A DNA stretch of 64,000 nt, from assembly GCA_043757405.1 (NCBI GenBank), contig JAYVPI010000011.1, positions 49,297 to 113,296 of the forward strand. Reading direction: 5' to 3'. Shown piece by piece: positions 10,164 to 62,801 of the stretch. A program made the translations under genes and the position numbers. The DNA comes from Alphaproteobacteria bacterium (lineage in GTDB: Bacteria > Pseudomonadota > Alphaproteobacteria > Rickettsiales > 21-14-0-20-44-7). Position 1 is the first letter of the stretch, and each line of letters starts with the position of its first letter. The notes under the pieces are model-generated. The model had not been told where the DNA came from. It ran no database searches and worked only from the letters and a program-made list of their open reading frames with translations.

Positions 10164-10259
10164 CCCTATAGCTTGCAACAAATTATAAATTTGTCAATTG
10201 CATTTATCGGTTCCGTATATCTTACGAAAGCATAAGCCACCCGAAGCCAAAGGCGAAGG

Positions 10260-10307
10260 GTGGTGGGCGGTTAGGGATTCGAACCCCAGACCCTCTCGGT
10301 GTAAACG
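10260..10307 (-). repeat. att direct repeat: duplicated 3' portion of tRNA-Val (distal island boundary)
   Basis: 48/48 identity to 16404-16451. It covers the acceptor 3' strand, the T-arm, the variable loop and part of the anticodon arm. Confidence 0.9.
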
Positions 10308-16404: not shown

Positions 16405-16481
16405 TGGTGGGCGGTTAGGGATTCGAACCCCAGACCCTCTCGGTGTAAACGAGATGCTCTAACCAGCTGAGCTAACCGCCC
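16405..16481 (-). tRNA. tRNA-Val (anticodon UAC), CCA encoded
   Basis: Hand-folded cloverleaf: acceptor GGGCGGT/ACCGCCC, D-arm GCTC..GAGC, anticodon arm TCTCG-TTTACAC-CGAGA, T-arm TGGGG-TTCGAAT-CCCTA, 3' ACCA. Confidence 0.95.
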
Positions 16482-27731: not shown

Positions 27732-27821
27732 TGTCATTCTCGGGCTTGACCCGAGAATCCAGGTCGCTTGCTCCGATACAGTATGCAACCCTAGATCCCC
27801 GGGTCAAGCCCGAGGATGACA
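27732..27821. repeat. Palindromic element, type A (two inverted ~30-nt hairpin modules tgtcatYctcgggcttgacccgagRatcca)
   Basis: The left module at 27732-27761 and the right module ending gatgaca at 27821 are near-perfect reverse complements. Each module is itself a hairpin. Confidence 0.85.
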
Positions 27822-29518: not shown

Positions 29519-29564
29519 TGTCATCCCAGCGAAGGCTGGGATCCAGCCTGCGCTGGAATCCAGC
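29519..29564. repeat. Half-size palindromic element variant
   Basis: tgtcatcccagcgaaggctgggatccagcctgcgctggaatccag. Same tgtcat terminus and ggatcc/ggaatccag core as types A and B. Confidence 0.65.
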
Positions 29565-29565
29565 T

Positions 29566-30345
29566 TTATTTTTTATGCGCCGCAAAAATCTCCTGCAGGC
29601 CCAATATCGTCAAATCCGGCTCGATTTTTTCGATTGCCTTAGTCGATTCGCCGAACATCGGCGCCAGGCCGCCGGTGGCGATTACTACGGGTTTGGTTTT
29701 CATCTCGGCTTTGATGCGGGCGGTGATGCCTTCGATTAGGCCGATATAGCCCCAATAAATGCCGCTTTGCATGGCTTCCTTGGTGTTGGTGGCGATGGCG
29801 CGTTTTGGTTTTTTGATCCAAACGCGCGGCAGCATCGCGGCGGCTTCCTGTAATGCGGATAATGATAGATTGATGCCGGGCGAAATTACGCCGCCGCGGT
29901 AATCGCCTTTTTCATCGACGACATCGAAAGTGGTGGCGGTGCCGAAATCGATGATGATGGCGGCTTTGTTGTACAATTTTTTGGCGGCCACTGCATTGAC
30001 GACGCGGTCGGCGCCAATTTCGGAAGGGTTGTCGATTTTGATTTTGACGGAATATTTGATGTTCTCGCCAACGACTAATGGTTTCACGCGGAAGAAATTG
30101 GCGCATAGTTTGTTGATCGCGATCATGATCTGCGGCACGACCGAGGCGATGATGATATTGCGGATGTCTTTTTTATTAATCCCTTCATCCTGCATCAAAA
30201 GCCCCAAAATGGCCGCATATTCATCACCAGTACGGTGATGGTCAGTTTGCAAACGCCACTTGGCTTTAATCTTCGCGCCGTCAAAAACCGCGAAATTGAT
30301 ATTGGTGTTGCCAGCATCGATGGCGAGTAAGTAATTATTGGGCAT
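29566..30345 (-). CDS. coaX: Type III pantothenate kinase
   Basis: LLAIDAGNTNINFAVF and DFGTATTFD motifs. The track's N-terminal 17 aa are a translation of repeat 30361-30450, so the ATG at 30345 is used. Confidence 0.9.
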   Translation of the reverse strand: MPNNYLLAIDAGNTNINFAVFDGAKIKAKWRLQTDHHRTGDEYAAILGLLMQDEGINKKDIRNIIIASVVPQIMIAINKLCANFFRVKPLVVGENIKYSVKIKIDNPSEIGADRVVNAVAAKKLYNKAAIIIDFGTATTFDVVDEKGDYRGGVISPGINLSLSALQEAAAMLPRVWIKKPKRAIATNTKEAMQSGIYWGYIGLIEGITARIKAEMKTKPVVIATGGLAPMFGESTKAIEKIEPDLTILGLQEIFAAHKK

Positions 30346-30360
30346 ACACACTCCAATATT

Positions 30361-30450
30361 TGTCATTCTCGGGCTTGACCCGAGAATCCAAGTCACTTGC
30401 TCTGACTTGGTATGTGACCCTGGATCCTCGGGTCAAGCCCGAGGATGACA
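30361..30450. repeat. Palindromic element, type A
   Basis: tgtcattctcgggcttgacccgagaatcca ... tggatcctcgggtcaagcccgaggatgaca. Fills the birA-coaX spacer. Confidence 0.85.
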
Positions 30451-30461
30451 ATATAAGCAGA

Positions 30462-31199
30462 TTAAATGGCATGGACTTCTCCGGAGGAAATAATCCTTTC
30501 GCCTTCATTGGTTTCCAAAACCAGCTCGCCGGTAGAAGTCAGTCCTTTGAAAATTCCCTCAACGTGTTTTTCTTCGAGATTAGCAACGATTTTTTCACCC
30601 AAACCGCTGGCGTTTTTGAGCCATAACGCGCTAATTTTGCCGAAACCGTCTTCCAACCAGATGTCGTAATACTTGCTAAAATCTTCCAGTAATTTGTCTT
30701 TTATCTTGCCAAAGTTTTCTTTATTGCCGAGCTTTTTCATGTTGGTGGCATAATCAGGAGATTTTTTGACGTTAATGCCAAATCCGACGATCAGATAATC
30801 CAAACGATCAGGTTTGCTGGACGCTGATTCAAGTAATATCCCGGCGATTTTTTTGCCATCAGCGAGGACATCATTCGGCCATTTTAGCCGCACCTCGGTA
30901 TCGGGGAGGTTTATTTGGATTGCTTCCAACGCCGCGAGAGAGGCGACGAATGAAACTTGATGCGCGGTGCGGACATCAAGATTGCGGATGAGGATGGAGA
31001 GATAGATATTTCCTTCCGGGGATTCCCAGCTGCGGGAATATCGGCCTTTGCCGCGGGTTTGCTTTTTGGCAGTGACGACGGTGAAGTTGGCGGCGCGTTT
31101 TTCAGCTAGTTTACGCAGCTCATCATTGGTGCTTTCCAGTTCATCATATTCAAGTATTTCCATCTTCCTTAGAATAGACCGGAAACGGCGGAATAACAA
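30462..31199 (-). CDS. birA: Biotin--[acetyl-CoA-carboxylase] ligase
   Basis: 245 aa with the QTRGKGRYSRSWESPEGNIYLS biotin-binding motif. No N-terminal HTH domain. Confidence 0.88.
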   Translation of the reverse strand: MLFRRFRSILRKMEILEYDELESTNDELRKLAEKRAANFTVVTAKKQTRGKGRYSRSWESPEGNIYLSILIRNLDVRTAHQVSFVASLAALEAIQINLPDTEVRLKWPNDVLADGKKIAGILLESASSKPDRLDYLIVGFGINVKKSPDYATNMKKLGNKENFGKIKDKLLEDFSKYYDIWLEDGFGKISALWLKNASGLGEKIVANLEEKHVEGIFKGLTSTGELVLETNEGERIISSGEVHAI

Positions 31200-32623
31200 G
31201 CATCCATCAACAATGCCGGATTGATGAAAATCAATAGGCTAAGCAGTGCGGAGATGGCGATTATAAAGCTGGAGGTGAAATCTAATTTGAGTGTCAGGCG
31301 TGTTGTGCCTTCCGGTTTGTCAAAATACATGATCTTGACGATGCGCAGGTAATAATATGCGGCGACTACTGAGGCAAGGATGCCGATAACTGCGATGATA
31401 TAAAACTTCTGCTGCATAAGCGCGGCGAAAATGAAGAACTTGGCGAAGAATCCTGGGAATGGCGGGAAGGGAAGGCCGATGAAAGAGAACATCAGGAAAG
31501 ATAGCATCAGTGCCACGACGGGATGACGGCTGCTCAAACCTTTAAAGTCGTCGATTTTCTCGATCAACCCGTCCTTGGTTTTTAAAGACAGGAGATATGC
31601 AAAGATGGCGATGCTGCTCAAGATATAAATTACCATATATGCAAGCACGCTTTGCACGCCCTGCTGCGTATTGGCGACGATGCCAAGCAGCGCATAGCCA
31701 ACATGGCCGATGGAGCTATAGGCGAGGAGGCGTTTGATATTGCTTTGCCAGATTGCGCCGAATGCGCCGACCAGCATTGAAAGAACTGAAATCACGATTA
31801 CCACTTGTTGCCATTGGAAAGCGAATCCGGCGAATGGGCCGCCAATTAGCAGGCGGATGAATAATGATACCGCCGCCAGTTTAGGCACGATGGCGAAATA
31901 AGCGGTGACCGGCGTTGGCACACCCTCATAAACATCCGGCGTCCACATATGGAATGGCGCCGCGGAAAGTTTGAAGGCGAGGCCGATTATAATGAAAACC
32001 AATCCTACAATAACGCCTTTGGAAAGCGCGGCTTGTCCTTGCAGGACGGTGAGTATATTGGTGAAGTTGGTTGAGCCTAGATAGCCGTAAACCAAGCTGA
32101 TTCCGTATAATAAAATGCCGCTGGCTAATGCGCCGAGGACAAAATATTTGATTGCGGCTTCAGTGGCGCGTTTATCTTCGCGCCGGCTGCCAGCGAGGAT
32201 ATAAAGGCTTAAGGACTGCAATTCAAGGCCGAGATACAATGTCAGCAAATCATTCGCCGAGACCATAATCACCATGCCGAGTAGGGAAGTGAGGATGAGG
32301 ATTGGATATTCAAAGCTTAAGTTATTAGTTTTGTCTTCGATGAAGTTGAAAGATAAAATCAACACCAGTGCGGCGCTGAAGATCAAAATGGATTTGGCGA
32401 AAATGCCGAAATTATCAAAGCGGTAAAGACCGTTGAAAATGATTTTGGTTTCGTGCGGCAGAAATATAACCGCGAATAATGCGCCCAGCAAGATGAAGGC
32501 GGAAAGGCGGGTGGAGATGAGGATGCTGCTTTTGGCAGGCGCATAAACGCCGATCATCAGCACGGCAAGCGCACCTAATGCCAACACTAATTCAGGAATT
32601 ATCAATTGCAGGTTTTCCATCAT
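31169..32623 (-). CDS. nuoN: NADH-quinone oxidoreductase subunit N
   Basis: 484-aa antiporter-like multi-TM protein. Last gene of the nuo block. Confidence 0.9.
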
Positions 32624-34086
32624 CTTTGGGTTTGGCCAATTAGGTTTTCAACAGTTGCGCGGGTCAATTCAAAAATACTTTCCGGATAAACCCCGAATAT
32701 TATCACCAGGATAGCAAGAACTCCCAGGCTTAAAAATTCTGTCCCGTTCAAATCCTGCATCTTTGCCGATTCTTCGTTCAACTCGCCGAACATTACGCGG
32801 CGGTATAGCCATAACATATATGCCGCGCCAAGGATAACCCCGGTAGCGGACAAGGCGGCGACAATTTTATTGACCTGGAATATAGCCATAAAGGTCAGGA
32901 ACTCGCCGACGAAACCGGAAGTTGCCGGTAGTCCCACTGAGCCCATTGTGAAGACCATGAACACCAACGCATATTTCGGCATCTTGTGCGCAAGGCCGGA
33001 GAAACGGCCGATTTCGCGGGTGTGCATGCGCTCATATACTACACCGACACAGAGGAAAAGGGCGCCGGAAACCAAGCCGTGTGAAATCATCTGGAATAAT
33101 GCGCCGTCGATTCCCTGTTGGGTGAAGGTGAAAATCGCCAATGTTACGAAACCCATATGCGCGACGGAGGAATAAGCGATCAGTTTTTTCATATCTTCCT
33201 GTACCAGCGCGACCAGCGATGTATAAATGATAGCGATAATGCTGAGTGAATAAACCAGCGGGGTGAAGACATAACTGGCATCGGGAAGCATCGGCAACGA
33301 GAAGCGGAGGAATCCGTATGCGCCGAGTTTTAGCAAAACACCGGCTAATATCACCGAACCGGCGGTTGGTGCCTGCACGTGTGCATCGGGCAACCACGTA
33401 TGCAGCGGCCACATCGGAACTTTGACGGCGAAGGAGGCGAATAAAGCCAGCCACAGCCAGATTTGTTCCTGAACCCCAAGATATGGCATGCGCTCGATCA
33501 GAACCGGGATAGAGGTTGTGTGGGTGTAGCCATACATGTAGATCAATGCCACCAGCAGCAATACCGAACCGGCGAGTGTGTAGAGGAAAAATTTGAACGC
33601 GGCATAAATCCGGTTTTGTCCGCCCCATACGCCGATGATCAAGAACATTGGGATCAATACGCCCTCGAAGAAGAGATAGAATAATACCGCATCTAATGAT
33701 GCGAATACGCCGATGATAATTCCTTCCATCACCAAAAAGGCGATCATATATTCTTTCAAACGCTCGGTGATATGTGCGCTGGCAAGTATGCAAAGCGGCA
33801 TCAGGAAAGTAGTGAGCATAATCATCACCAGCGAAATTCCATCGACGCCGAGATAATAATTTATATTATAACCGCGCACCCATTGATATTTTTCGACGAA
33901 TTGGAAATCGGCAATGCCAGCATCAAAAAACTTCCACATCAATAGTGAAATCATGAAATTAAGGAAAGTCGTTGCCAGCGCAATATTACGAATAGTCTTC
34001 GCCCCCGGCTGGCGCATGGTAAACAGCACCGCCGCCGCAAGGATGGGCAGGAAAATCAGGATTGATAGTAGCGGCAGGTTCATCAT
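32620..34086 (-). CDS. nuoM: NADH-quinone oxidoreductase subunit M
   Basis: Antiporter-like subunit ([19 protein letters not shown]). The ATGATG at 34086 is used; the track's upstream 16 aa are translated from repeat 34103-34171. Confidence 0.9.
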
Positions 34087-34102
34087 TTCGCCACCTCGCT
34101 CT

Positions 34103-34171
34103 TCATAGCGACGCGGCAATCCAGGTTCGCGCACTCCGTCCCTGGATTGCTTCGCTTTGCTTGCAATGACG
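34103..34171. repeat. Palindromic element, type B (gtcatWgcga...gcaatccagg...cctggattgc...gcaatgac)
   Basis: Nested inverted repeats. It lies exactly between the nuoL stop and the nuoM start, flanked by the 9-bp direct repeat catcatttc (34081-34089 and 34188-34196). Confidence 0.85.
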
Positions 34172-34189
34172 ATTGTGTAAAATTATCCA

Positions 34190-36103
34190 TCATTTCCTGA
34201 ATATAAAGATACTGCTTAAGACGGCCAGCGCCAAAATCATCACCAAAGAATATTGGTAAATAAATCCGGTCTGGAATGCTTTCAAACGCGCACCGAAACG
34301 GCTGGAAATATTTGCGGCGCCGTTAGGCATTCCGTCAACCAGCTTCACATCAACTTCGCGCCAGAAGAAATTGGCGATTTTGAATGTCGGGCGGACAAAT
34401 ACGGCGTTATAGATTTCATCAATATACCATTTGTTCAAGCTCGCCAGGTATAATGGCTTAAGGGCTTTAGCTAAACTTTCGGCAATTGATAATTTCCAGA
34501 TATAAATCACCGCCGCGATCACGCCCATCGTTACTACACCCGGCACAATCCATTCCGGCGGGTGGATATGTTCTAAGGCTGGATTGCCAGGCAGTGCACC
34601 ATACCAGAAGCCGGCATTGGGCGATAATACATGCAGGATTTCTTCGCCATACCAGCCTGAGAATATCGCGCCTAGCGACAATATAATCAGCGGAATCATC
34701 ATAGTAGGCGGCGATTCATGCGCATGGTCGAATGTATGATGGTCAGCACGCGTCTGTCCGTGGAATGTGAGGAACAGCAGGCGGAATGAATAAAATGAAG
34801 TCAGCAACGCGGTAATAGCGCCCATTATGAATGCGAATTGCGCAGTTTCAGTATGGCCATTATATGCCATGCCGAGGATTGCTTCTTTGGAATAATATCC
34901 GGCCAGGAACGGAATCCCGGTAATCGCCAATGTGCCAATCCAGAACAATGCATATGTCAGCGGAATCTTCTTCCACAACCCGCCCATTTTGCGAATATCC
35001 TGTTCGTGATGCATTGCGTGAATCACCGAGCCAGCGCCGAGGAATAATAAGGCTTTGAAAAATGCGTGAGTGGCGAGGTGGAATATACCGGCTTGATAAG
35101 CCGACAAACCGCAGGCAAAAACCATATAGCCTAGTTGAGAGCAGGTGGAATATGCGATTACTTTTTTGATATCATTTTGCGTAAGCGCAATTGTCGCCGC
35201 AAATATCGCGGTGAATGCACCAACTACAGTTACGATTTCACGCGCGGTTAATGAGAGTTCAAATAATGGCGAGCAGCGGGCGATCATGAATACGCCGGCG
35301 GTTACCATTGTTGCGGCGTGGATGAGTGCAGAAACCGGGGTAGGGCCTTCCATTGCGTCAGGGAGCCATGTATGCAGTCCAAATTGCGCGCTTTTGCCGC
35401 AAGCGCCGATGAAGAGGAGGATACAGGCCAGCGTAATGGCGTTAATGTCATAGCCAAGGATATTCCAGGTTATTTTGCTATTCGCGGTGGCGGCGGAGAA
35501 AACATCGTGGAAATTTACCGAGCCAAAAAGCAGGAATATTGCGGCGATACCGAGAATGAAACCGAAATCGCCGATGCGGTTGACGACAAATGCTTTAATC
35601 GCGGCGGCATTGGCGGAATCTTTGTAGAACCAAAAACCGATGAGCAAATATGAACATAAGCCCACGCCTTCCCAGCCGACGAACAATTGGATGAAATTAT
35701 CGGCAGTAACCAGGATCAACATGAAGAACGTGAACAGCGAAAGATAGGCCATGAAGCGCTGCTTGTGCGGATCTTCGTCCATATAACCGATCGAGTATAA
35801 ATGTACTAATGAGGAAACGCCGGTTACCACCACCAGCATCACGGCGGTTAATGGGTCGATCAATATCGACCAATTGGCTTTGAAATCACCAGAGTAAATC
35901 CATTTTACCAATGTCACATGTTGCGGATGCTGCAGAATTGCGACGTTGTTGAACATATAAAGTGATGCGATGGCCGCCACGAACAACAAGCCGGTAGTCA
36001 CTACTTGCGCCAGCCTGGCGCTGATAATTTGCGTCTGCAACCCGGTGAACACGGCTCCCAGTAACGGCGCAAATAATATGATTTTGGCTAGGATCAATTC
36101 CAT
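34190..36103 (-). CDS. nuoL: NADH-quinone oxidoreductase subunit L
   Basis: Antiporter-like subunit with a C-terminal lateral helix region. The ATG at 36103 is used; the track's first 19 aa are translated from repeat 36115-36193. Confidence 0.9.
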   Translation of the reverse strand: MELILAKIILFAPLLGAVFTGLQTQIISARLAQVVTTGLLFVAAIASLYMFNNVAILQHPQHVTLVKWIYSGDFKANWSILIDPLTAVMLVVVTGVSSLVHLYSIGYMDEDPHKQRFMAYLSLFTFFMLILVTADNFIQLFVGWEGVGLCSYLLIGFWFYKDSANAAAIKAFVVNRIGDFGFILGIAAIFLLFGSVNFHDVFSAATANSKITWNILGYDINAITLACILLFIGACGKSAQFGLHTWLPDAMEGPTPVSALIHAATMVTAGVFMIARCSPLFELSLTAREIVTVVGAFTAIFAATIALTQNDIKKVIAYSTCSQLGYMVFACGLSAYQAGIFHLATHAFFKALLFLGAGSVIHAMHHEQDIRKMGGLWKKIPLTYALFWIGTLAITGIPFLAGYYSKEAILGMAYNGHTETAQFAFIMGAITALLTSFYSFRLLFLTFHGQTRADHHTFDHAHESPPTMMIPLIILSLGAIFSGWYGEEILHVLSPNAGFWYGALPGNPALEHIHPPEWIVPGVVTMGVIAAVIYIWKLSIAESLAKALKPLYLASLNKWYIDEIYNAVFVRPTFKIANFFWREVDVKLVDGMPNGAANISSRFGARLKAFQTGFIYQYSLVMILALAVLSSIFIFRK

Positions 36104-36114
36104 TCTCCCAAGTT

Positions 36115-36193
36115 TGTCATCCTCGGGCTTGACCCGGGGATCCAGGGCCGTACACTCCACAAGCTCTGGATTCCCGCCTGCGCGGGGATGACA
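36115..36193. repeat. Palindromic element, A/variant hybrid
   Basis: tgtcatcctcgggcttgacccggggatcc ... ctggattcccgcctgcgcggggatgaca. Flanked by a perfect 21-bp direct repeat (36076-36096 and 36204-36224). Confidence 0.85.
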
Positions 36194-36221
36194 TGGTTAG
36201 TGGATATGATTTTGGCTAGGA

Positions 36222-36872
36222 TCATTCTTGCGGCACTCCGTTTTCGGTTTCAGTTCCGGTGCTTTCTTCGTCTATCTCATTACTAAACTCATCCCGGTCT
36301 TCGTCGATGAACTGGTATGAAGTCACCAGGTTTTTGAACGCCGGATAAACTTTTTTCGCCTCTTTCTCATTACGCGCGTTCAAAGTGATGATGGAAATGG
36401 TCTCGTCCTGGAGGATATAAGCGATTTCTTCCATATTTCCGGATTTGTCATCTTTCAATTTTTTGACCAATGCCAGCGCACCATCTTTGGTAAACAAGTT
36501 GGTGTCGTCATAAACTTTTACATTCGAGTTGATATCCTGGTAGCTGGCAATATCCTCATCAATGATTTTTTGCACGCTGCCGTTGATGCGGTCGGATGTG
36601 CGCAAATACAGCACAGCCGGAGAATTCTGCCACGAACCACCTTTAGGATAAAACACGATTGATACACCTTGCGCCACGCCGGATTGGTTATCCGCAACCC
36701 ACCCGCTCGGCGGATCGATCTTGATATGGCCCGGCGGCGTATATACCGGAACCACCGCCGGTTTCGGCATTTCCTTACGCTCCGGAACTTGATCCGGCCC
36801 GGACTTTGGCGCCGCAGCGAGTGCGGGGGCGGAGGATAATATGAGTAATAAAACTAAAAAATATTTCTTCAT
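36222..36872 (-). CDS. Secreted protein of unknown function embedded in the nuo operon
   Basis: 216 aa with signal peptide MKKYFLVLLLILSSAPALAA and an acidic C-terminal tail. Shares a GW(V/F)ADN motif with the upstream 177-aa ORF. Confidence 0.6.
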   Translation of the reverse strand: MKKYFLVLLLILSSAPALAAAPKSGPDQVPERKEMPKPAVVPVYTPPGHIKIDPPSGWVADNQSGVAQGVSIVFYPKGGSWQNSPAVLYLRTSDRINGSVQKIIDEDIASYQDINSNVKVYDDTNLFTKDGALALVKKLKDDKSGNMEEIAYILQDETISIITLNARNEKEAKKVYPAFKNLVTSYQFIDEDRDEFSNEIDEESTGTETENGVPQE

Positions 36873-37405
36873 TATTTTGACTCATATTTTGCTGATTGAA
36901 GTATTGGCATAATTTCCGATGAATTATTTTTATAGGTAGTTTCAATTACCATAACCCAAGCCTCTTTATTCGAGCTGATTGGGTATAAGAAAACCATAAC
37001 TCGTTCAGGCGAATCTTTTATGCCCATGAAACAATACGTCACGTTTCCCATAGGGGCGGCTATGTCAGTTTTCTGGGGGATTTGTTTATAGCATCCTTTT
37101 GATGGGGAAGAATCATAAGAAGCGATGGTGATAAATTCCTTTTCCTCGTTTCCCTTTTTTAAAAGAAAAGCTTGCCGGGCAAGGTCTGGAGAAACCGAGT
37201 ATTTTTTCATTAATTCATTTTGTACCGTATTATCAGCGAACCAATTACCGGAGGCTTGCAAGGAAAAACTGCTGCCATCATTAAAGTGAACAACCGCTTT
37301 ATTATCCTTTTGTATTTGCGCCCAAGCAACAAACCCAACTCCTACTACTAAAATAAAAATAGCAAGTTTAAAAAAGAACTTAAAAATACCAAAAATAAAA
37401 CCCAT
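36872..37405 (-). CDS. Membrane-anchored protein of unknown function embedded in the nuo operon
   Basis: 177 aa with an N-terminal TM anchor. GNWFADNT aligns with SGWVADNQ of the next ORF. Its stop overlaps the next start (ATGA). Confidence 0.6.
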   Translation of the reverse strand: MGFIFGIFKFFFKLAIFILVVGVGFVAWAQIQKDNKAVVHFNDGSSFSLQASGNWFADNTVQNELMKKYSVSPDLARQAFLLKKGNEEKEFITIASYDSSPSKGCYKQIPQKTDIAAPMGNVTYCFMGIKDSPERVMVFLYPISSNKEAWVMVIETTYKNNSSEIMPILQSAKYESK

Positions 37406-37408
37406 AAT

Positions 37409-37717
37409 TTACCCCTTCAACTCACTAATATCTTCGACATGGATCGTTTTCGTGTTTCGGAAAAACGCTACTAATATCGCCAGTCCAATCGCGGCTTCGG
37501 CGGCGGCTACGGTTAATATGAAAAGTGTGAAAACCTGTCCAACCAGATCATGCAAATGCACGGAGAAGGCGACGAAATTTATGTTTACGGCGAGCAGCAT
37601 CAGCTCCACAGACATCAAAATTGTGATGATGGATTTTTTGTTGATGAATAATCCGGTGACGCCGATGACGAAGATTATTGCGGCGAGGATGAGGTAGTGA
37701 GTTAAACCTATTCCCAT
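37409..37717 (-). CDS. nuoK: NADH-quinone oxidoreductase subunit K
   Basis: 102 aa, three TM segments, [17 protein letters not shown] motif. Confidence 0.93.
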
Positions 37718-37718
37718 A

Positions 37719-37731
37719 CACCTCCCAAATT
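37719..37731 (-). promoter_or_regulatory. Conserved SD-bearing 13-mer (minus strand aatttGGGAGGTG) adjoining the type B element, upstream of nuoK
   Basis: An identical 13-mer is present at 38449-38461 upstream of nuoJ. GGGAGGTG ends 1 nt (nuoK) or 7 nt (nuoJ) before the ATG. Confidence 0.6.
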
Positions 37732-37732
37732 A

Positions 37733-37813
37733 GTCATTGCGAGGAGCGTGGCGACGCGGCAATCCAGGGTCGCAAACTCCGCGCTGGATTGCTTCGCTCG
37801 GGCTCGCAATGAC
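37733..37813. repeat. Palindromic element, type B
   Basis: gtcattgcgag...gcaatccagg...gctggattgc...ctcgcaatgac. Fills the nuoJ-nuoK junction. Confidence 0.85.
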
Positions 37814-37832
37814 GGGGCTTTTCTGATTTCCA

Positions 37833-38441
37833 TTATGACACTCCCTTGCCGGTTTCGACTTTGACAATTTCCAGCGTATCGCGGCGTTTGCGGTTGACCT
37901 GGGTGTTGATTTTCTGCTTGCGCATACGCTCGCGTGGATAGAAGCAGAGGACGATGGCGCCGATCATCGCTACTAACAGGATCATTCCGGAAATTTGGAA
38001 GGCGAAAGCGTAATCAGTATAAATTACTTGGCCGAGCGCGGCTGTATTGGTGACGCCGGTTTTGATTGGTTGCGACAGGCGAAACGGCATGGCGGCGACT
38101 TTGTCCATTTGTGTGAAAAGAATCACCATTTGTGTCAGCAAAAAAGTAGCGATGACAAATCCGGCATGCGAATATTTCGTCAACCCGCGGCGGAAAGTTT
38201 CTACTTCGACATTGAGCATCATCACCACGAATAGGAATAGAACGGCAACCGCGCCGACATAAACGATTATCAGTAACATGGCCAGGAACTCGGCGCCAAG
38301 CATGATGAAGAGTGCGGCAGCGTTGAAAAAAGCGAGGATCAGGAATAGTACCGAATGTACGGGGTTGCGTAACGTTACTACCATCAGCGCGGAGCTGACG
38401 AGGATGAAACCGAAAGCATAAAACATGATAGCGGCAATCAT
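37833..38441 (-). CDS. nuoJ: NADH-quinone oxidoreductase subunit J
   Basis: 202 aa. NPVHSVLFLILAFFNAAALFIMLGAEFLAMLLIIVYVGAVAVLFLFVVMM is the NuoJ signature. Confidence 0.93.
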   Translation of the reverse strand: MIAAIMFYAFGFILVSSALMVVTLRNPVHSVLFLILAFFNAAALFIMLGAEFLAMLLIIVYVGAVAVLFLFVVMMLNVEVETFRRGLTKYSHAGFVIATFLLTQMVILFTQMDKVAAMPFRLSQPIKTGVTNTAALGQVIYTDYAFAFQISGMILLVAMIGAIVLCFYPRERMRKQKINTQVNRKRRDTLEIVKVETGKGVS

Positions 38442-38448
38442 ATTTTAC

Positions 38449-38461
38449 CACCTCCCAAATT
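38449..38461 (-). promoter_or_regulatory. Conserved SD-bearing 13-mer adjoining the type B element, upstream of nuoJ
   Basis: The plus strand reads cacctcccaaatt, identical to 37719-37731. Confidence 0.6.
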
Positions 38462-38462
38462 T

Positions 38463-38537
38463 GTCATTGCGAGCCCGCGCAAAGCAATCCAGCGCGGAGT
38501 TTGCAATCCTGGATTGCCGCGCTTCGCTCGCAATGAC
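38463..38537. repeat. Palindromic element, type B
   Basis: gtcattgcgagc...gcaatccagcg...cctggattgc...ctcgcaatgac. Fills the nuoI-nuoJ junction. Confidence 0.85.
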
Positions 38538-38556
38538 GGGGCTTTGTGATTGGCGA

Positions 38557-39042
38557 TCATCTGAACTTTGCCCTCTCGATCAAGTTGGCGGCGATTTCCT
38601 TTTCCCAGCGGTCACCATTGGAAAGTAGCTTGTCCTTGTCATAGAACAATTCCTCGCGCGTATAAGTCGCAAACTCAAAATTCGGCCCCTCGACAATCGC
38701 ATCAACCGGGCAGGCTTCCTCGCAATAACCGCAATAGATGCATTTGGTCATGTCGATATCATATTTCGTGGTGCGCCGCGAACCATCCTCGCGTACATCC
38801 GCCTCAATCGTAATCGCCTGCGCCGGACAAATCGCCTCGCAAAGCTTACAGGCAATGCACCGCTCTTCACCGTTAGGATAACGCCGCAGCACATGCTCAC
38901 CACGGAAACGCGGGGAAAGCGGGCCTTTTTCGTATGGGTAGTTCAGAGTTACCGAGGGCTGGAAAAAGAAATATTTCAGCGTTTTGCAGAATCCGGCAAC
39001 GATTTCCAAAAGTAGCAGCGATGTGATTTTGAATCTATTCAC
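38557..39042 (-). CDS. nuoI: NADH-quinone oxidoreductase subunit I
   Basis: 161 aa with two 4Fe-4S ferredoxin motifs ([24 protein letters not shown]). Confidence 0.95.
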
Positions 39043-40288
39043 TTGGCGGATTAGCTCCTAATATTGCTTCTACGATAGAATCGTTATTCTGATATTTTTT
39101 TACCATAGCATCAACTTCATTCAAACTATGGCAATATTTATAAACCTGTTCCCTTTGGTCCTTATCACTGTCCTTTGCTCGATTTGTATCATTACGAGGA
39201 TCAATATAATTCCGGCAATTGTTTAAATCATCGATAAAGATAGAAACCTCTTTTGGGTATTGAGTAGTTTTTTCGGTACTATCCGGCAACCAGCCAAAAT
39301 AAACCAGAACCCCAGCCACCGCAACCACACCGAGCAGCGACAGTGGCAAAAACACCTTCCAACCCAATCGCATCAACTGGTCATAGCGGTAGCGCGGCAA
39401 AGTGGCGCGGGCCCAGATGAAGATGAAGAGGCAGGCGACAATCTTTAGCGCGAACCAGATTGGGCCGGGGATGAAGGAGAGGCTCGCCATTGGGGGCAGC
39501 CAGCCGCCGAGGAATAATATCGTGGCATTGGCGCTCATCAGGATCATGTTCATATATTCGCCGAGGAAAAACATGGCGAAAATCATCGAGGAATATTCGA
39601 CATTGTAACCGGAAACCAGCTCGGCTTCGGCTTCCGGGAGGTCAAATGGGTGGCGGTTGGTTTCGGCGAGGATCGAGATAAAAAAGATGACGAACATCGG
39701 GAAAAGCGGGATGATATACCACATGCCTTTCTGCGCGTTGACTATTGCGGAAAGGTTCAACGACCCCGCGCAAAGCAAAACGGTGATGATGACCAGTCCA
39801 ATCGAAACCTCATAAGAAACCATCTGCGCCGCCGAGCGGATGGCGCCGAGGAACGGGTATTTGGAGTTGGAAGCCCAGCCGGCGATGATGATGCCGTAAA
39901 CCCCAAGCGACGAAATCGCCAGCAAATACAACACGCCGACATTGATATCGGCCAGCACCAGCCCCGCCCCAAACGGAATCACCGCCCAGCCAGCCATCGC
40001 CAGCGTAAACGTAATCACCGGCGCTAACACAAACAGCACCTTGTTGGATTCGGTGGGCAAAATCAACTCCTTAGACATCAACTTCACCCCATCCGCAAAC
40101 GGCTGCAACAGGCCGAACGGCCCAACGACATTAGGGCCTTTCCGCATCTGCATCGCGGCAATGACCTTACGCTCCATCAGCGTCAGGTAAGCCATGGCAA
40201 TGATCAGCGGCAAAATAATCAGCACAATCCGCCCAAGGATTTTCAGGAGAGGGTAGAGGTATTCATTGTATGCAGCAGCCCAATCCAT
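39035..40288 (-). CDS. nuoH: NADH-quinone oxidoreductase subunit H with a ~75-aa hydrophilic C-terminal extension
   Basis: 417 aa. The canonical NuoH sequence runs to ...VLVYFGWLP. It is followed by [13 protein letters not shown]...ILGANPPSE, which has no TM segments. Confidence 0.9.
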
Positions 40289-40641
40289 TATTTGGCCTCC
40301 GTCATAGCGCTAGGATTCTCAAAATAATTATAAATTGAAATAGAATTCAAAATTATATTCTGAATAAGGAAAAAAACTCCTAAAATAATTAAAAATATAA
40401 GAATAATTTTATCTCTAGGCGTAACTGGTACTTCCTCATTTACTTTGTCGTTTTTATATAATTTACCTTTTTTTAGAAGATTTAAATAATACATATTAGC
40501 TAGTCCAGCAAAGGCTAAAGCGGTCATACCAAATGTATCATGTTTAATTTTATAATAGATTAGTACAGTTTGAAGAATGTACATAAAAATAAGCATTGTC
40601 GCATAAATATAAGCATACAATTTATAATACCGTTCGCTCAC
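40288..40641 (-). CDS. Small membrane protein embedded between nuoG and nuoH
   Basis: 117 aa, GTG start preceded by GAGGAGG, 3-4 hydrophobic segments, very AT-rich. The stop overlaps the nuoH start. Confidence 0.5.
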
Positions 40642-40661
40642 ACAACCTCCTCAAGGAAACC

Positions 40662-40738
40662 GTCATTCCCGCGAAGGCGGGAATCTAGGGCTTGTGAGAT
40701 CGCGACCCTGGATCCTCGGGTCAAGCCCGAGGATGACA
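40662..40738. repeat. Palindromic element (variant left module gtcattcccgcgaaggcgggaatc, type A right module)
   Basis: Read directly from the sequence. It ends ggatcctcgggtcaagcccgaggatgaca. Confidence 0.8.
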
Positions 40739-40740
40739 CT

Positions 40741-40768
40741 GAACTCTGAACTCTGAACTCTGAACTCT
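40741..40768. repeat. Perfect heptamer tandem array (gaactct)x4
   Basis: Four exact 7-nt units lie immediately after the nuoG stop codon. Confidence 0.9.
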
Positions 40769-40771
40769 GAA

Positions 40772-42793
40772 TCACGCCTCCTCCTTACCCGTCGAAGCAA
40801 CCATCTCCATACACTGCGCCATCGTGCGCGAGTTGCGGGAGATTGGGTCGGTCATGTAGAAGTTTTGGATTGGGTAGGTGAAAGGTTGATTGCCGATTGC
40901 CGATTGCCGAATTGAGGCGCCCCAGCTCCATTTGGCTGGAGTAATAACGTCTAATTTTGCAAAATGGGGGGCTTCTTTGAATAATTCGGTGCGCAATTCT
41001 TCCAATGTATTGAAGGGGAGAGTTTTGCCCGCAATTTCAGAAAGGGCGCGGATGATTTTCCAATCTTCTCGAGCCTCGCCCGGCGGGAAGGCGGCTTGTT
41101 TGGTGTGTTGCACGCGGCCTTCGAGGTTTAAATAAATTCCGTCCTTTTCGGTATACGCCACGCCCGGCAGCACAACATCGGCGGCATGCGCACCTTTGTC
41201 GCCGTGATGGCCCTGGTAGATGATGAATGCGCTTTTGTATTTGCTCAAATCGGTTTCGTCGGCGCTGAGGAGGTAGAGTAATTTATGATTGCCGATTGCC
41301 GATTGCCGATTGGAAGTGAAGCCCAGATCCAAACCGGCAACGCGCGAGGCGGCGGTGTGGAGGATGTTGAAACCGTTCCAGTTTTCGGTGTCTTGGATCA
41401 GGTTATATTTTTCGGCGATTAATTTCGCGCTGGATAGAATCGCGGCGCTATCCGGGCGGGTGAGGGCGGCATTGCCGATTATCAGCATCGGTTTTTTGGC
41501 ACCGGCGAAAAACTTTTTCACGGCATCGCTGGTGATTAATTCCGGGGATTCGCCCAAGTGTTGGTATTTATAATTAAGGTCTGTTTCCTCACCGATATTG
41601 GCAATTTTCAAACCACCGCGCAGGAAAGTTTTGCGGATGCGGTGGTTGACCAGCGGCGCTTCCCAACGCGGGTTGGTGCCGATTAATAACAATGCATCAG
41701 CTTGTTCGATTCCGGCAATTGTGGTGTTGAATAAATATGCGCCGCGATTGCCGGTGTCGAGATGCGCTTCATCCTGGCGGCATTCGAGGTTTTCGCATTT
41801 CAAGCTGTTGAATAATTTTTTCGCTGCGAACATGGTTTCCGCATCCACCTGGTCACCGGCAATCACCGCCATTTCCTCACCTTTCAACTTCGACATTTTC
41901 TTGGCGATCGCATTGAACGCCTCATCCCAGTTCACAGGTTGCAGTTTACCGTTCACCCGTAAATAAGGCCGGTCGAGGCGCTGTACTTTTAAACCGTCAC
42001 AAGCGTGGCGGGTTTTGTCGGAAATCCATTCCTCGTTAATGTCATCATGGTTGCGCGGTAAAATCCGCATCACCTCATTGCCGCGCGTATCAATGCGGAT
42101 ATTGCTGCCGACCGCGTCCATTACATCAATACTTTCAGTTTTTTTCAACTCCCAGGGGCGGCCTTTGAATGCGTATGGTTTTGAGGTAAGTGCGCCAACC
42201 GGGCATAAATCAACTACGTTAGCTGATAATTCAGAGGTCAGGGATTTTTCCAGATATGAGGTGATTTCCATATGTTCGCCGCGGTTCAACGCGCCCATTT
42301 CTTCGATTCCGGCGACGTCGTCAGTAAAGCGGATACAGCGCGTGCAATGAATACAGCGCGTCATTTCGGTTTTCACCAATGGCCCCATATATTTTTCCGG
42401 CACGGCGCGTTTTGCCTCAGGATAACGCGATCCGGCACGGCCAAAATACATTGATTGGTCTTGCAAATCACATTCGCCGCCCTGGTCGCAAATCGGGCAA
42501 TCAAGCGGGTGGTTGATGAGGAGGAATTCCATCACGCCCTCACGCGCTTTTTTCACCATCGGCGAATTGGTCTTCACCACCATCCCTTCCGCCACCGGCA
42601 GCGCGCAGGAAGCTTGCGGCTTCGGCGGCCCGGGCGAGACTTCCACCAGGCACATCCGGCAGTTGCCCGCAATGGCAAGCCGCTCATGATAACAAAACCG
42701 CGGAATTTCCACGCCGAGCTGCTCACAAGCTTGGATCAGCACAGTGCCTGCTTCGACTTCGATCTGTTTATCATCGATGGTAAGTTTGACCAT
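40772..42793 (-). CDS. nuoG: NADH-quinone oxidoreductase subunit G
   Basis: 673 aa. N-terminal 2Fe-2S and 4Fe-4S Cys clusters (CYHERLAIAGNCRMC, CPICDQGGEC, CIHCTRC) and a molybdopterin-like domain. Contains two in-frame heptamer arrays. Confidence 0.95.
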   Translation of the reverse strand: MVKLTIDDKQIEVEAGTVLIQACEQLGVEIPRFCYHERLAIAGNCRMCLVEVSPGPPKPQASCALPVAEGMVVKTNSPMVKKAREGVMEFLLINHPLDCPICDQGGECDLQDQSMYFGRAGSRYPEAKRAVPEKYMGPLVKTEMTRCIHCTRCIRFTDDVAGIEEMGALNRGEHMEITSYLEKSLTSELSANVVDLCPVGALTSKPYAFKGRPWELKKTESIDVMDAVGSNIRIDTRGNEVMRILPRNHDDINEEWISDKTRHACDGLKVQRLDRPYLRVNGKLQPVNWDEAFNAIAKKMSKLKGEEMAVIAGDQVDAETMFAAKKLFNSLKCENLECRQDEAHLDTGNRGAYLFNTTIAGIEQADALLLIGTNPRWEAPLVNHRIRKTFLRGGLKIANIGEETDLNYKYQHLGESPELITSDAVKKFFAGAKKPMLIIGNAALTRPDSAAILSSAKLIAEKYNLIQDTENWNGFNILHTAASRVAGLDLGFTSNRQSAIGNHKLLYLLSADETDLSKYKSAFIIYQGHHGDKGAHAADVVLPGVAYTEKDGIYLNLEGRVQHTKQAAFPPGEAREDWKIIRALSEIAGKTLPFNTLEELRTELFKEAPHFAKLDVITPAKWSWGASIRQSAIGNQPFTYPIQNFYMTDPISRNSRTMAQCMEMVASTGKEEA
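40887..40910. repeat. Intragenic heptamer array (gattgcc)x3 in nuoG, copy 1
   Basis: tgattgccgattgccgattgccga is identical to 41286-41309 and encodes IRQSAIGNQ. Confidence 0.9.
41286..41309. repeat. Intragenic heptamer array (gattgcc)x3 in nuoG, copy 2
   Basis: The same 24-mer lies 399 nt (133 codons) from copy 1 and encodes NRQSAIGNH. Confidence 0.9.
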
Positions 42794-50817: not shown

Positions 50818-50926
50818 GTTATCCCGGCGAAGGCAGGAAGCCAGTTGTTATAATCTCATATTATAAGTCTTATTCTTGGTCAAGGCAGGATATAGCTGGA
50901 TCCTCGGATCAAGTCCGAGGATGACA
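50818..50926. repeat. Degenerate palindromic element with AT-rich insert
   Basis: gttatcccggcgaaggcaggaagccag ... gctggatcctcggatcaagtccgaggatgaca. Confidence 0.6.
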
Positions 50927-53115: not shown

Positions 53116-53125
53116 ATTGCTCCTA

Positions 53126-53195
53126 TTTTTGATTTTTGATTTTTGATTTTTGATTTGTTCTTCAAATCAGCAATCAGCAATCAAAAATCAGCAAT
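53126..53195. repeat. Inverted pair of heptamer arrays: (tttttga)x4 and aatcagc/aatcagc/aatcaaa/aatcagc
   Basis: The perfect 4x array at 53126-53153 faces an imperfect complementary array at 53165-53195 in the tolQ-tolR spacer. Confidence 0.85.
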
Positions 53196-53987: not shown

Positions 53988-54015
53988 TGTCATTCCCGCG
54001 CAGGCGGGAATCCAG
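53988..54015. repeat. Single palindromic module tgtcattcccgcgcaggcgggaatccag
   Basis: Self-complementary cccgc-gcag-gcggg core. A degenerate partner (ctggatccccgcgca...) lies at 54123-54137. Confidence 0.6.
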
Positions 54016-54608: not shown

Positions 54609-54698
54609 TGTCATTCTCGGGCTTGACCCGAGAATCCAGTGCTTCTTGGTGATGGTGGCATAGCGATCTGGATCCTCGGGTCAAGCCCGAGAATGACA
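54609..54698. repeat. Palindromic element, type A
   Basis: tgtcattctcgggcttgacccgagaatccag ... ctggatcctcgggtcaagcccgagaatgaca. Confidence 0.85.
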
Positions 54699-54706
54699 TA
54701 TCGAGA

Positions 54707-55246
54707 TTAGAAAATTTTATTTTCCATAACGATCTTATCCAGCTTCACATCCCAATCTTCGTTGGGGATTTTCTCGACTTCCTGGGTGGAATATGCAACT
54801 CCGATGCTCATTGAAGGCTTCAGCGCCGCAATCGTCCGGTCATAAAATCCGCCGCCATAACCAAGCCGGTGTTTGTCTTTGTCAAAAGCGAGTAGGGGAA
54901 CAATTACGATATTGGGAGTCAATTCTTCGTGATGATTTTTGCAGGGTTCGTAAATTTTATGATGCGGGCTCTTCACCATCACCGCTTCCGGCTCCCACTG
55001 GCGGAAATGCAGCGGCGCATTTTTTTCTGAAATACAAGGCAGGCAAATATCATAGCCACGCTCATATAGTTCTTTAATCAACGGCCGCACATCAATCTCC
55101 GACCCAATCGGCCAATAAGCGCTGATGATACTGCCCGCCGGAATCTCAATATTTTTAAGAAAATTGTCACGCAGAGCTAAACCCTTTTGCGGATTATGAA
55201 TCTTATCGCGAATCTTTAGCGCGTCTTGTCGTAACTTTTCTTTCAC
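54707..55246 (-). CDS. 5-formyltetrahydrofolate cyclo-ligase
   Basis: 179 aa, GTG start. LGYGGGFYDR is the family signature. Confidence 0.88.
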   Translation of the reverse strand: MKEKLRQDALKIRDKIHNPQKGLALRDNFLKNIEIPAGSIISAYWPIGSEIDVRPLIKELYERGYDICLPCISEKNAPLHFRQWEPEAVMVKSPHHKIYEPCKNHHEELTPNIVIVPLLAFDKDKHRLGYGGGFYDRTIAALKPSMSIGVAYSTQEVEKIPNEDWDVKLDKIVMENKIF

Positions 55247-55421
55247 TAGCCCCCAGAGCCGTCCCGCCTTCGCTCTTTCGAGCTACGGCGCGCCAAGCAG
55301 CCCGCCGCGGCATTGTTATCGCAGAGTCGACGTGAACGGAGAGCCGTCAACGTCGCGCATCCGCGACTGTTTTGAATCGCGAGCGCCCGAGCGCTCGATT
55401 CAAAACAATTATAAATAGAAT

Positions 55422-55571
55422 GGCTCCACAACAACCGTTGGCAGTTTGATTCGCCGAGGTCCTATGATTATAGGTGGGCGCCATATACCAGGCCCACGGG
55501 CCTGACAGGGACAGCTCCCTCTCGTTGAATGAGTATCGACCCTGGGAATGCAGTCGCCTAAACGAGAAGCC
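55422..55571 (-). ncRNA. ssrS: Candidate 6S RNA (SsrS)
   Basis: ~150-nt GC-rich non-coding stretch directly upstream of the 5-FCL gene, which is the classic ssrS-ygfA synteny. The ends pair (GGCUUC/GGAGCC, with further interrupted helices) and there is an apical hairpin caggcccgtgggcctg. The boundaries are approximate. Confidence 0.35.
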
Positions 55572-55650
55572 GCAGAAATCCATTCTAAACGATAATATAG
55601 CACCAATTCACCGTAATTGCAATTAGCCGGGGCTATTATATAATGATTTC

Positions 55651-62682: not shown

Positions 62683-62717
62683 ATAATTAAGTGATAAGGT
62701 TTAAAGGTTCCTAATTA

Positions 62718-62801
62718 GTCATCGCGGGCTTGTTCCGCGATCCGGAAGTTTATGTGATCTCACACAAAGCTACCAGACCCCGCAACAAGTGCGGGGTGAC
62801 A
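62718..62801. repeat. Palindromic element, type C, in the hslV-hslU spacer
   Basis: gtcatcgcgggcttgttccgcgatccgg ... ccagaccccgcaacaagtgcggggtgaca. Confidence 0.8.

Follow-up and report, generated by a model that had tools for sequence, protein, structure and literature searches.

Palindromic repeat doublets at overlapping stop/start junctions of an alphaproteobacterial complex I operon, with duplicated junctions and putative bridging mini-ORFs

The DNA considered here, called the window throughout, is a stretch of 64,000 nucleotides (64 kb) of contig JAYVPI010000011.1 (assembly GCA_043757405.1), from a bacterium placed in the Rickettsiales, and it carries nuo genes for complex I on its minus strand. 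Twelve palindromic repeat elements, E1 to E12, lie in this window, with 18 arms in total. Comparison with relatives indicates that doublets of these arms multiplied in the lineage of the window and entered junctions at which the stop codon of one gene overlapped the start codon of the next. Each surviving insertion of this kind carries a direct duplication of 8-22 nt, the upstream copy keeping the stop and the downstream copy keeping the start. Small open reading frames (mini-ORFs) run from the upstream, or relic, start through the insert. It is likely, taking these features jointly, that the doublets split overlapping junctions with duplication, and that the relic-start mini-ORFs restore the coupling.

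Each arm consists of GTCAT, a small hairpin and ATCCAG, and two inverted arms with a loop of 15-55 nt make up the palindrome. There are three arm types, which may be mixed within one element: type A is TCTCGGGCTTGACCCGAGA, type C is TCCCGCGAAGGCGGGA, and type B has the form TGCGAGC...GCA, written GTCATTGCGAG...GCAATCCAG in E7. Folded as RNA, E3 forms a hairpin of -69.8 kcal/mol (z -8.8) and E7 one of -59 kcal/mol (z -4.5); the z value for E4 is -3.6. Lone arms fold as single-stranded DNA with -8.9 kcal/mol (z -5.1) for type C and -9.3 kcal/mol (z -5.9) for type A, and type B arms fold weakly alone (z -1.4 to +0.65).

A preliminary description of this DNA reported type B elements at nuoI/nuoJ, nuoJ/nuoK and nuoL/nuoM, flanked by copies of the downstream start region. 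Its coordinates and strings for these junctions are all correct, with the core of E4 read here as 34103-34170. The duplicated strings are ATGAT(C/T)GCC at nuoI/nuoJ (9 nt, 8/9 identical), ATGG(A/G)AAT at nuoJ/nuoK (8 nt, 7/8) and GAAATGATG at nuoL/nuoM (9 nt, 9/9). As read here, the pattern reaches at least six junctions, three beyond those just named: nuoG/orfY, orfX2/nuoL and birA/coaX (Table 1). The first of these had been listed as a weaker fifth case and is real, GAGGAGGCGTGA at 40772-40783 corresponding to GAGGAGGTTGTGTGA at 40638-40652. At orfX2/nuoL there is an exact repeat of 21 nt (36076-36096 and 36204-36224), or of 22 nt with one change, and at birA/coaX an 11-nt overlap has been duplicated, with both copies kept in the window. 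The duplication of 8-9 bp that had been proposed therefore holds for the type B junctions (9, 8 and 9 nt) and not for those with type A or C arms (~11, ~12 and 21-22 nt). That it preserved both the stop and the start is borne out when the window copies are set beside the relatives.

When the flanks were shuffled, the 9/9 pair at nuoL/nuoM had p ~0.01, and the 21-nt repeat at orfX2/nuoL was reached by 0/300 shuffles. In the same test the 8/9 pair at nuoI/nuoJ was not significant (p ~0.23), and the 7/8 pair at nuoJ/nuoK fell below the reporting threshold of the script, the best match in those flanks having p ~0.2. By sequence alone, significance is reached by the 9/9 and 21/21 repeats only; the other junctions rest on the empty sites of relatives.

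These relatives were found by a metagenome scan and protein look-ups, and their loci are given here L numbers. NuoJ is 88% identical in L057 and 86% in L076; NuoM is 85% identical in L137, 83% in L138, 77% in L139, and 76% in L140 and L141. L137 extends from nuoI as far as the gene for topoisomerase I, downstream of rnj, with 0 elements throughout. In it nuoI/nuoJ is an ATGA overlap (-4) without an element, as also in L057, L139 and L140, the relatives reading TTCA(G/A)ATGAT with a 4-nt overlap. At nuoJ/nuoK it has TAATG (-1), found also in L057 and L140, and E6 is absent from this junction in L137, L057, L139 and L140. L137 and L076 have ATGA and no element at orfX2/nuoL; nuoL/nuoM is ATGA without an element in L137, and L138 has the same ATGA string. 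The equivalent of nuoG/orfY overlaps without an element as ATGA in L057 and as TGATG in L140, and birA and coaX overlap by 11 nt in relatives (ATGCCATCTAA), E3 being absent from L137-L140. At nuoJ/nuoK the relic ATGGAAAT is identical to the sequence in L137 and L140, and it is the active copy that has drifted, to ATGGGAAT. Alignment with element-free relatives shows exactly the ATGA/TAATG overlaps that had been predicted as ancestral, and the window is best read as the ancestral junction sequence plus an insert plus a direct duplication.

The syntenic DNA of the closest relative (L137 and L262, 36.5 kb) has 0 arms vs 18 in the window, which indicates a lineage-specific expansion; short-read contigs tend to break at repeats, and the L137 junctions themselves are contiguous. 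Misassembly of the window is argued against by two Logan assemblies from other sequencing runs (L001 and L002, short-read), which cover the nuoJ-to-orfX2 region with NuoJ and NuoK products identical to those of the window and carry the same cores, both arms being identical at nuoJ/nuoK and at nuoI/nuoJ. It might be supposed that the spacers are ancestral and that deletion between the flanking repeats removed the elements precisely from the relatives, and direct repeats flanking an insert can indeed mediate precise excision. This is extremely improbable, however, as four relatives at different distances are element-free at nuoI/nuoJ and four at nuoJ/nuoK; repeated, independent, precise losses would be required, and in more distant alphaproteobacterial loci, too, the junctions are mostly tight or overlapping.

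In the window every relic start still overlaps the stop of the upstream gene, inside which the old Shine-Dalgarno sequence, rich in purines, is kept. At every one of these junctions a single frame of the three bridges the insert, and it is always the relic-start frame. The distances from copy to copy are 134, 119, 116, 128 and 107, each of which is 2 mod 3, the residue required, and at birA/coaX the distance is 127, or 1 mod 3, as the 11-nt overlap demands; there the mini-ORF ends in a TAA (30335-30337) that is a copy of the old birA stop, the active coaX ATG lying at 30345. An independent case was met in L076, in which a different hairpin doublet at 298-403 (ATCCCGAACTTGTTTCGGGAT / CCCTGAAACAAGTTCAGGG, with no GTCAT head) splits nuoJ/nuoK. 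There a 35-codon frame begins at a relic ATG (within TGATG) and closes with the TAA of the TAATG at nuoK; the distance is 107. The frame rule holds in 7/7 cases, six in the window and the one in L076; taking only the frame condition, (1/3)^7 is ~5e-4 by arithmetic. The gene caller used for L001 also called the bridging frame of nuoI/nuoJ. The flanking copies had been described as relics; they are copies of ancestral start regions, but they are probably not dead, since each opens a frame bridging the insert. The mini-ORFs probably keep the translation of the flanking gene pair linked.

The remaining elements differ from these. Neither a bridging frame nor a flank repeat is present at E9, E11 or E12, and no known ancestral overlap is split by any of the three; the relatives L262 and L263 place E9 and E11 in plain spacers. 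E10, which consists of one arm, has open frames but lacks a start codon and is uninformative for the frame rule. At E1 the frame past the rnj stop meets no stop codon until a TAA that lies 2 nt ahead of the downstream ATG; the ancestral junction was a 2-nt gap, and there is no clear duplication. At E2, in coaX/rnj, an open frame ends on the downstream start, and L137 has TAATG at this junction. A separate feature of nuoG/orfY is a run of TTCAGAG heptamers (x ~5, 40739-40771) between the nuoG stop and E8, which is part of the bridging frame.

Several points weigh against the reading given here. The frame statistic is post hoc, with n=7, and the inserts at nuoI/nuoJ and nuoJ/nuoK share flanks, so that their origin is not fully independent; their lengths differ. 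Open frames are less surprising in that G+C-rich arms are often stop-free, and downstream expression might need no more than the new Shine-Dalgarno sequences. E2 replaces an ancestral TAATG overlap without a clear relic start. A crude scan for the GIY-YIG motif found no ssnA-like gene in the window ORFs, the ORFs flanked by elements being YbgC, TolQ and similar. In the distant relative L264 a type B arm following an ATGA nuoL/nuoM junction appears in frame with nuoM. That locus was set aside as frame evidence, being uninformative, as the assembly is full of split genes and the frame is unreliable; there a gene caller fused the single arm (9001-9135) to NuoM, giving an N-terminus with RHCEERNAAIQ.

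If the relic starts are used, the upstream copy would serve as a complete initiation site, the signals for which are present, and ribosomes ending the upstream gene would re-initiate at the relic start. They would then translate a mini-ORF of 36-45 codons through the insert, melting a hairpin that, untranslated, would fold with -45 to -70 kcal/mol, and would terminate on, or 7-8 nt inside, the true downstream start. The ancestral coupling of termination and re-initiation would be re-created in this way. Direct initiation may be added by the strong Shine-Dalgarno sequence that lies between core and start (GGGAGGTG, GAGGTGG, GGGAGA, GGAGTG, or the duplicated native GAGGAGG). Inserts of 0 mod 3 length would fuse ~40 residues onto membrane subunits, and those of the third length class would carry ribosomes over the start out of frame; one class would survive. 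Tolerance only of lengths that place the relic-start frame on the upstream stop frame would explain the frame rule in every case.

The hairpins may instead have been kept for a function other than translation, in mRNA processing or stability or as Ssn DNA targets modulating recombination, with the frames incidental. The hairpins are strong, and REP-type hairpins stabilise upstream mRNA. In Neisseria the small GIY-YIG nuclease SsnA binds the repeats known as NTS (Neisseria Transformation Sequence), part of the wider class of Ssn-related motifs (SRM), as single-stranded DNA and cuts a few nt upstream, and NTS repeats modulate transformation (PMC11893778). We nevertheless think such a role unlikely, because it leaves unexplained both the frame rule and the fact that the sole bridging frame is the relic-start frame. 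Intrinsic terminator and sigma-70 promoter signatures at the elements were as frequent as in shuffles, with no terminator call there on the gene strand, and the elements are not required, since the closest relative has the same operon with none of them.

The distance between duplication and core varies, from 11-34 nt on the 5′ side and from 9-21 nt on the 3′ side. A classical MITE (a miniature transposable element with inverted repeats), making a fixed staggered cut of 8-9 bp and thus a true target-site duplication, would leave functionless relics, the frame pattern being coincidental or due to avoidance of harmful fusions. The type B duplications of 9, 8 and 9 nt and the inverted termini GTCAT...ATGAC would suit such an element. 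Instead of a fixed-length duplication abutting terminal inverted repeats, however, lengths of 8, 9, 9, ~11, ~12 and 21-22 nt were found, at variable distances from the core. Among 36 non-redundant type B doublets from other organisms in IMG/VR there were no flank repeats above a mismatched-pair null, the flanks being simply C before GTCAT and G after ATGAC, and flank repeats are also missing from four window elements whose sites are ordinary spacers, 11-72 nt long, in relatives. Flank duplication is not a general property of the element family. With the frame rule at 7/7 and the inverted core of E7 described below, a MITE seems a rather improbable explanation.

The cores of E6 and E7 are identical at 69/75 positions as reverse complements and at 61/75 in the same orientation, and their inserts have co-oriented outer flanks in common, 5′ AAAGCCCC and 3′ AATTTGGGAGGTG. 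Either the flanks were copied with the core, which can flip between terminal inverted repeats of 11 nt, or there was convergence of the flanks. The preliminary description pointed to a shared 13-mer with a Shine-Dalgarno sequence in front of nuoK and nuoJ, and the 13-mer, CACCTCCCAAATT, is identical at 37719-37731 and 38449-38461. It is not a fixed element terminus, because its two cores are oppositely oriented and it is absent from type B doublets elsewhere. Exact IMG/VR searches for the type B flanks AAAGCCCCGTCATTGCGAG and CTCGCAATGACWAATTTGGG gave no match.

A process in two steps, with tandem duplication of the junction first and a duplication-free element of IS200/IS605 or REPIN type landing in the spacer afterwards, would account for the variable duplication length and for the general lack of flank repeats. 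The NTS-ssnA-NTS arrangement has been likened to IS200/IS605 and REP systems (PMC11893778). At each of the six junctions, however, the two-step process would require a pair of rare events, and no duplicated but empty junction was seen in relatives at the junctions examined; we consider it very unlikely. The variable length of the duplications points to a loosely staggered break with fill-in, or to a template switch, and not to a fixed-stagger transposase. We infer from the sequences a loose break-and-fill or template-switch event, filtered by selection for duplications that span both stop and start. No microhomology between insert ends and target sites was noticed by eye. SsnA cutting was rejected as the source of the co-mobilised flanks, since it cuts a few nt upstream and 9-34 nt are carried outside the cores. 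A classing of the IMG/VR doublets as relay, in-ORF or neither by naive ORF logic was likewise discarded, spurious long ORFs on both strands being common to the high-G+C contigs.

With respect to target choice, 6/6 ancestrally overlapping junctions in the stretch syntenic with L137 are occupied vs 1/5 non-overlapping ones (hand-calculated one-sided Fisher p ~0.015, from small numbers chosen after the fact).

The elements were compared with known repeat families, for NTS and SRM, taken together with the dRS3 repeats of Neisseria, using the patterns as defined in PMC11893778. The SRM motif has 13 matches in the window vs 0.18 expected, in type A and C arms only; type B arms have 0. There is an exact NTS match at 40661-40688, in an arm of E8, one further NTS with 1 mismatch, and six NTSvar-like arms within 3 mismatches. 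Type C arms agree with the NTS consensus CGTCATTCCCGCGMAVGCGGGAATCYRG either fully or apart from 1-3 mismatches, and type A arms resemble NTSvar; both systems have oriented hairpin arms in which GTCAT is conserved at the 5′ side and ATCC at the 3′ side. The arms here differ in being chiefly inverted doublets with a 15-55-nt loop, and insertion sites, flank duplications and translation through the repeats are not described in the accessible part of that paper, in which Wolbachia and Rickettsia are given as SRM-rich (PMC11893778). By these likenesses type A and C arms can be assigned to the NTS/SRM class. Type B is best regarded as a variant, having only the GTCAT/ATCCAG borders and the doublet layout in common, because the SRM pattern fails and the arms fold weakly alone. 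This variant is widespread, type B arms being present in at least 120 IMG/VR contig stretches. Literature string searches with the arm sequences gave primer coincidences only for type B, and led to PMC11893778 for type C.

E1 and E11, which are type A doublets, align to the full Rfam family WsnRNA46 (RF02625), positions 1-151, with 51-56 bits and E 1e-8 to 1e-9, under the gathering score of 65.3; type B elements gave no match to it. This Wolbachia "sRNA 46" matches on both strands, which fits a palindrome and not a strand-specific sRNA gene.

MIRUs (mycobacterial interspersed repetitive units) are non-palindromic, often tandem units of 46-101 bp in actinobacteria. The present elements, which are palindromic, single per site and alphaproteobacterial, are set apart from them by description, and the resemblance would be one of mechanism. 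According to PMC12548453, citing Supply 1997, MIRUs enter at start codons and have an internal ORF whose coupling to the gene has a spacing of -4 nt. They share with the present elements the character of mobile intercistronic repeats whose internal ORF is stop/start-coupled to the flanking gene and which barely disturb operon expression, and the logic suggested here is that reported for mycobacteria (PMC12548453). Coupling of that kind is represented here by ATGA, TTGA or GTGA overlaps at four junctions, and at two the stops begin 7-8 nt inside the gene.

Rickettsia palindromic elements (RPEs), attributed to Ogata and colleagues in 2000, are reportedly in-frame insertions inside genes. By description, not by sequence, they are similar in being palindromes of ~100 bp in Alphaproteobacteria that stay translatable, a related in-frame tolerance; the elements here differ in that each lies between two genes, in a bridging ORF separate from them, and in that the junctions are duplicated. 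Elements that do lie in frame inside ORFs were seen in relatives and resemble RPE-like insertion. One, a type-B-like copy, is in the 5′ part of an orfX2-like gene in L057 (~3782-3848); another, an A/C doublet, is at the 3′ end of a small ORF before nuoH in L140 (4898-4975; also in L141), the ORF then ending in TAATG on nuoH.

REPINs are expected to move without duplicating the target, and at six junctions here it is duplicated. REP, REPIN and BIME sequences with RAYT transposases, which are also discussed in PMC11893778, are alike in forming inverted doublets of short hairpins between genes, often within operons, but the elements here are without a GTAG-type REP head. No RAYT gene appeared in Pfam scans of neighbouring genes, among which no search aimed at RAYT was made.

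The spread of NTS/SRM repeats was left as a hypothesis, with an IS-like NTS-ssnA-NTS unit, and their link to a family of nucleases specific for single strands is recent (PMC11893778, accessible part). Filled and empty sites in close relatives provide direct evidence that doublets of NTS/SRM type are mobile, and they reveal an insertion anatomy of variable junction duplication, flanks carried along and flippable cores. The tightly coupled complex I operon would absorb five hairpin insertions of 100-130 nt by way of translated bridges, and a principle so far described for MIRUs would extend to Alphaproteobacteria and to palindromic repeats. What appears to be new is the evidence for mobility of the repeat class, the insertion anatomy and the frame rule; the concept has its precedent in MIRUs. 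It is conceivable, though doubtful, that the class goes further than this, that insertion itself makes the variable duplications and prefers stop/start overlaps, and that stop-free arms and an outward Shine-Dalgarno-like flank are adaptive, letting the doublets settle in essential operons as translated "relay" cassettes that keep translation coupled. For annotation, bridging frames are easily miscalled as genes, and peptides like VIPAQAGIQ or SLRAKRGNPG stem from bridging or read-through frames and do not mark genes.

The coordinates of the genes, elements, junction copies and mini-ORFs are collected in Table 1. The identities of nuoG, H, I, J, K, L and M are backed by Pfam, and the nuo genes are followed downstream by birA, coaX and the RNase J gene rnj.

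Table 1. Features of the nuo region and its elements, in window coordinates
Feature	Position	Strand	Remarks
nuoG	40772-42793	-	Pfam
orfY	40288-40641	-	small ORF
nuoH	39035-40288	-	Pfam
nuoI	38557-39042	-	Pfam
nuoJ	37833-38441	-	Pfam
nuoK	37409-37717	-	Pfam
orfX1	36872-37405	-	177 aa, without Pfam family
orfX2	36222-36872	-	216 aa, without Pfam family
nuoL	34190 to ~36100	-	Pfam; start TTG 36097 or ATG 36103
nuoM	32620-34086	-	Pfam
nuoN	31169-32623	-	
E1	27733-27820		type A core, rnj/DUF1467 junction
E2	29520-29546		single arm and partial repeat, coaX/rnj junction
E3	30362-30449		type A core, birA/coaX junction
E4	34103-34170		type B core, one arm truncated, nuoL/nuoM junction
E5	36116-36192		mixed A/C-arm core, orfX2/nuoL junction; both arms match SRM motif
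E6	37733-37813		type B core, nuoJ/nuoK junction, inverted relative to E7
E7	38463-38537		type B core, nuoI/nuoJ junction, two inverted GTCATTGCGAG...GCAATCCAG arms
E8	40662-40737		mixed C/A-arm core, nuoG/orfY junction
E9	50818-50925		control, before tolB, plain spacer in relatives
E10	53989-54015		single NTS-like arm, ybgC/tolQ spacer
E11	54610-54697		control, 5-formyltetrahydrofolate cyclo-ligase/ybgC spacer
E12	62709-62801		variant doublet between two co-directional ORFs, all three frames closed
nuoG/orfY upstream copy	40772-40783	-	GAGGAGGCGTGA, nuoG stop and relic GTG start
nuoG/orfY downstream copy	40638-40652	-	GAGGAGGTTGTGTGA, native Shine-Dalgarno and orfY GTG
nuoI/nuoJ upstream copy	38552-38560	-	ATGATCGCC, nuoI TGA and relic nuoJ start; forward strand ggcgatcat
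nuoI/nuoJ downstream copy	38433-38441	-	ATGATTGCC, active nuoJ start; forward strand ggcaatcat
nuoJ/nuoK upstream copy	37826-37833	-	relic ATGGAAAT, ancestral nuoK start overlapping nuoJ TAA; forward strand atttccat
nuoJ/nuoK downstream copy	37710-37717	-	ATGGGAAT, active nuoK start; forward strand attcccat
orfX2/nuoL upstream copy	36204-36225	-	ATGATCCTAGCCAAAATCATAT, orfX2 TGA, relic nuoL start and 7 codons
orfX2/nuoL downstream copy	36076-36097	-	TTGATCCTAGCCAAAATCATAT, 5′ end of active nuoL
nuoL/nuoM upstream copy	34188-34196	-	GAAATGATG, nuoL TGA and relic nuoM start; forward strand catcatttc
nuoL/nuoM downstream copy	34081-34089	-	GAAATGATG, active nuoM start; forward strand catcatttc
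birA/coaX upstream copy	30462-30472	-	ATGCCATTTAA, relic coaX ATG 30472
13-mer before nuoJ	38449-38461	-	AATTTGGGAGGTG, with Shine-Dalgarno
13-mer before nuoK	37719-37731	-	AATTTGGGAGGTG, with Shine-Dalgarno
mini-ORF nuoG/orfY	40775 to 40638	-	45 codons, ends TGA of GTGA at orfY
mini-ORF nuoI/nuoJ	38560 to 38438	-	40 codons, ends TGA of ATGA at nuoJ
mini-ORF nuoJ/nuoK	37833 to 37708	-	41 codons, TAG begins 7 nt inside nuoK
mini-ORF orfX2/nuoL	36225 to 36094	-	43 codons, ends TGA of TTGA at nuoL
mini-ORF nuoL/nuoM	34193 to 34083	-	36 codons, ends TGA of ATGA at nuoM
mini-ORF birA/coaX	30472 to 30335	-	45 codons, TAA begins 8 nt inside coaX

In reference genomes the identity of NuoJ is at most 57%, the nearest being Alphaproteobacteria, Micavibrio-like and Rickettsiales metagenome-assembled genomes (MAGs). 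The interval between nuoK and nuoL, which holds orfX1 and orfX2 in the window, also contains unassigned ORFs in L137, L057, L076, L139 and L140. Similarity to orfX2 is visible in those of L057 and L076, and in L057 a paralogue of orfX2 takes the place of orfX1.

Another palindromic repeat is found in nuo spacers of the Micavibrio-like MAGs L012 (10613-10711 and 11024-11122) and L019 (10613-10724). It occupies the nuoJ/nuoK and nuoK/nuoL spacers and is built from TCAGATGA/GATCATC heptamers. No relic starts were seen at the junction-spacer palindromes of the distant relatives L012, L019 and L007.

Short tandem repeats occur elsewhere in the window, with (GATTGCC) x3 twice within the nuoG coding sequence (40887-40910 and 41286-41309) and (ATTTTTG)n near tolQ/tolR (53125-53195). 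A tRNA-Val gene lies at 16405-16481 on the minus strand, and a 58-nt copy of its 3′ part is found 6.1 kb away, at 10250-10307. Inside this interval, at 12-16 kb, the G+C content is 0.38 vs ~0.47 elsewhere, and the stretch between the tRNA-Val gene and its partial copy looks like an island integrated at the tRNA. A 6S RNA (RF00013) at 55419-55581 on the minus strand scores 50.1 bits, exceeding the gathering score of 46.4, and it sits just upstream of the gene for 5-formyltetrahydrofolate cyclo-ligase (54707-55246), in the classic ssrS-ygfA pairing.

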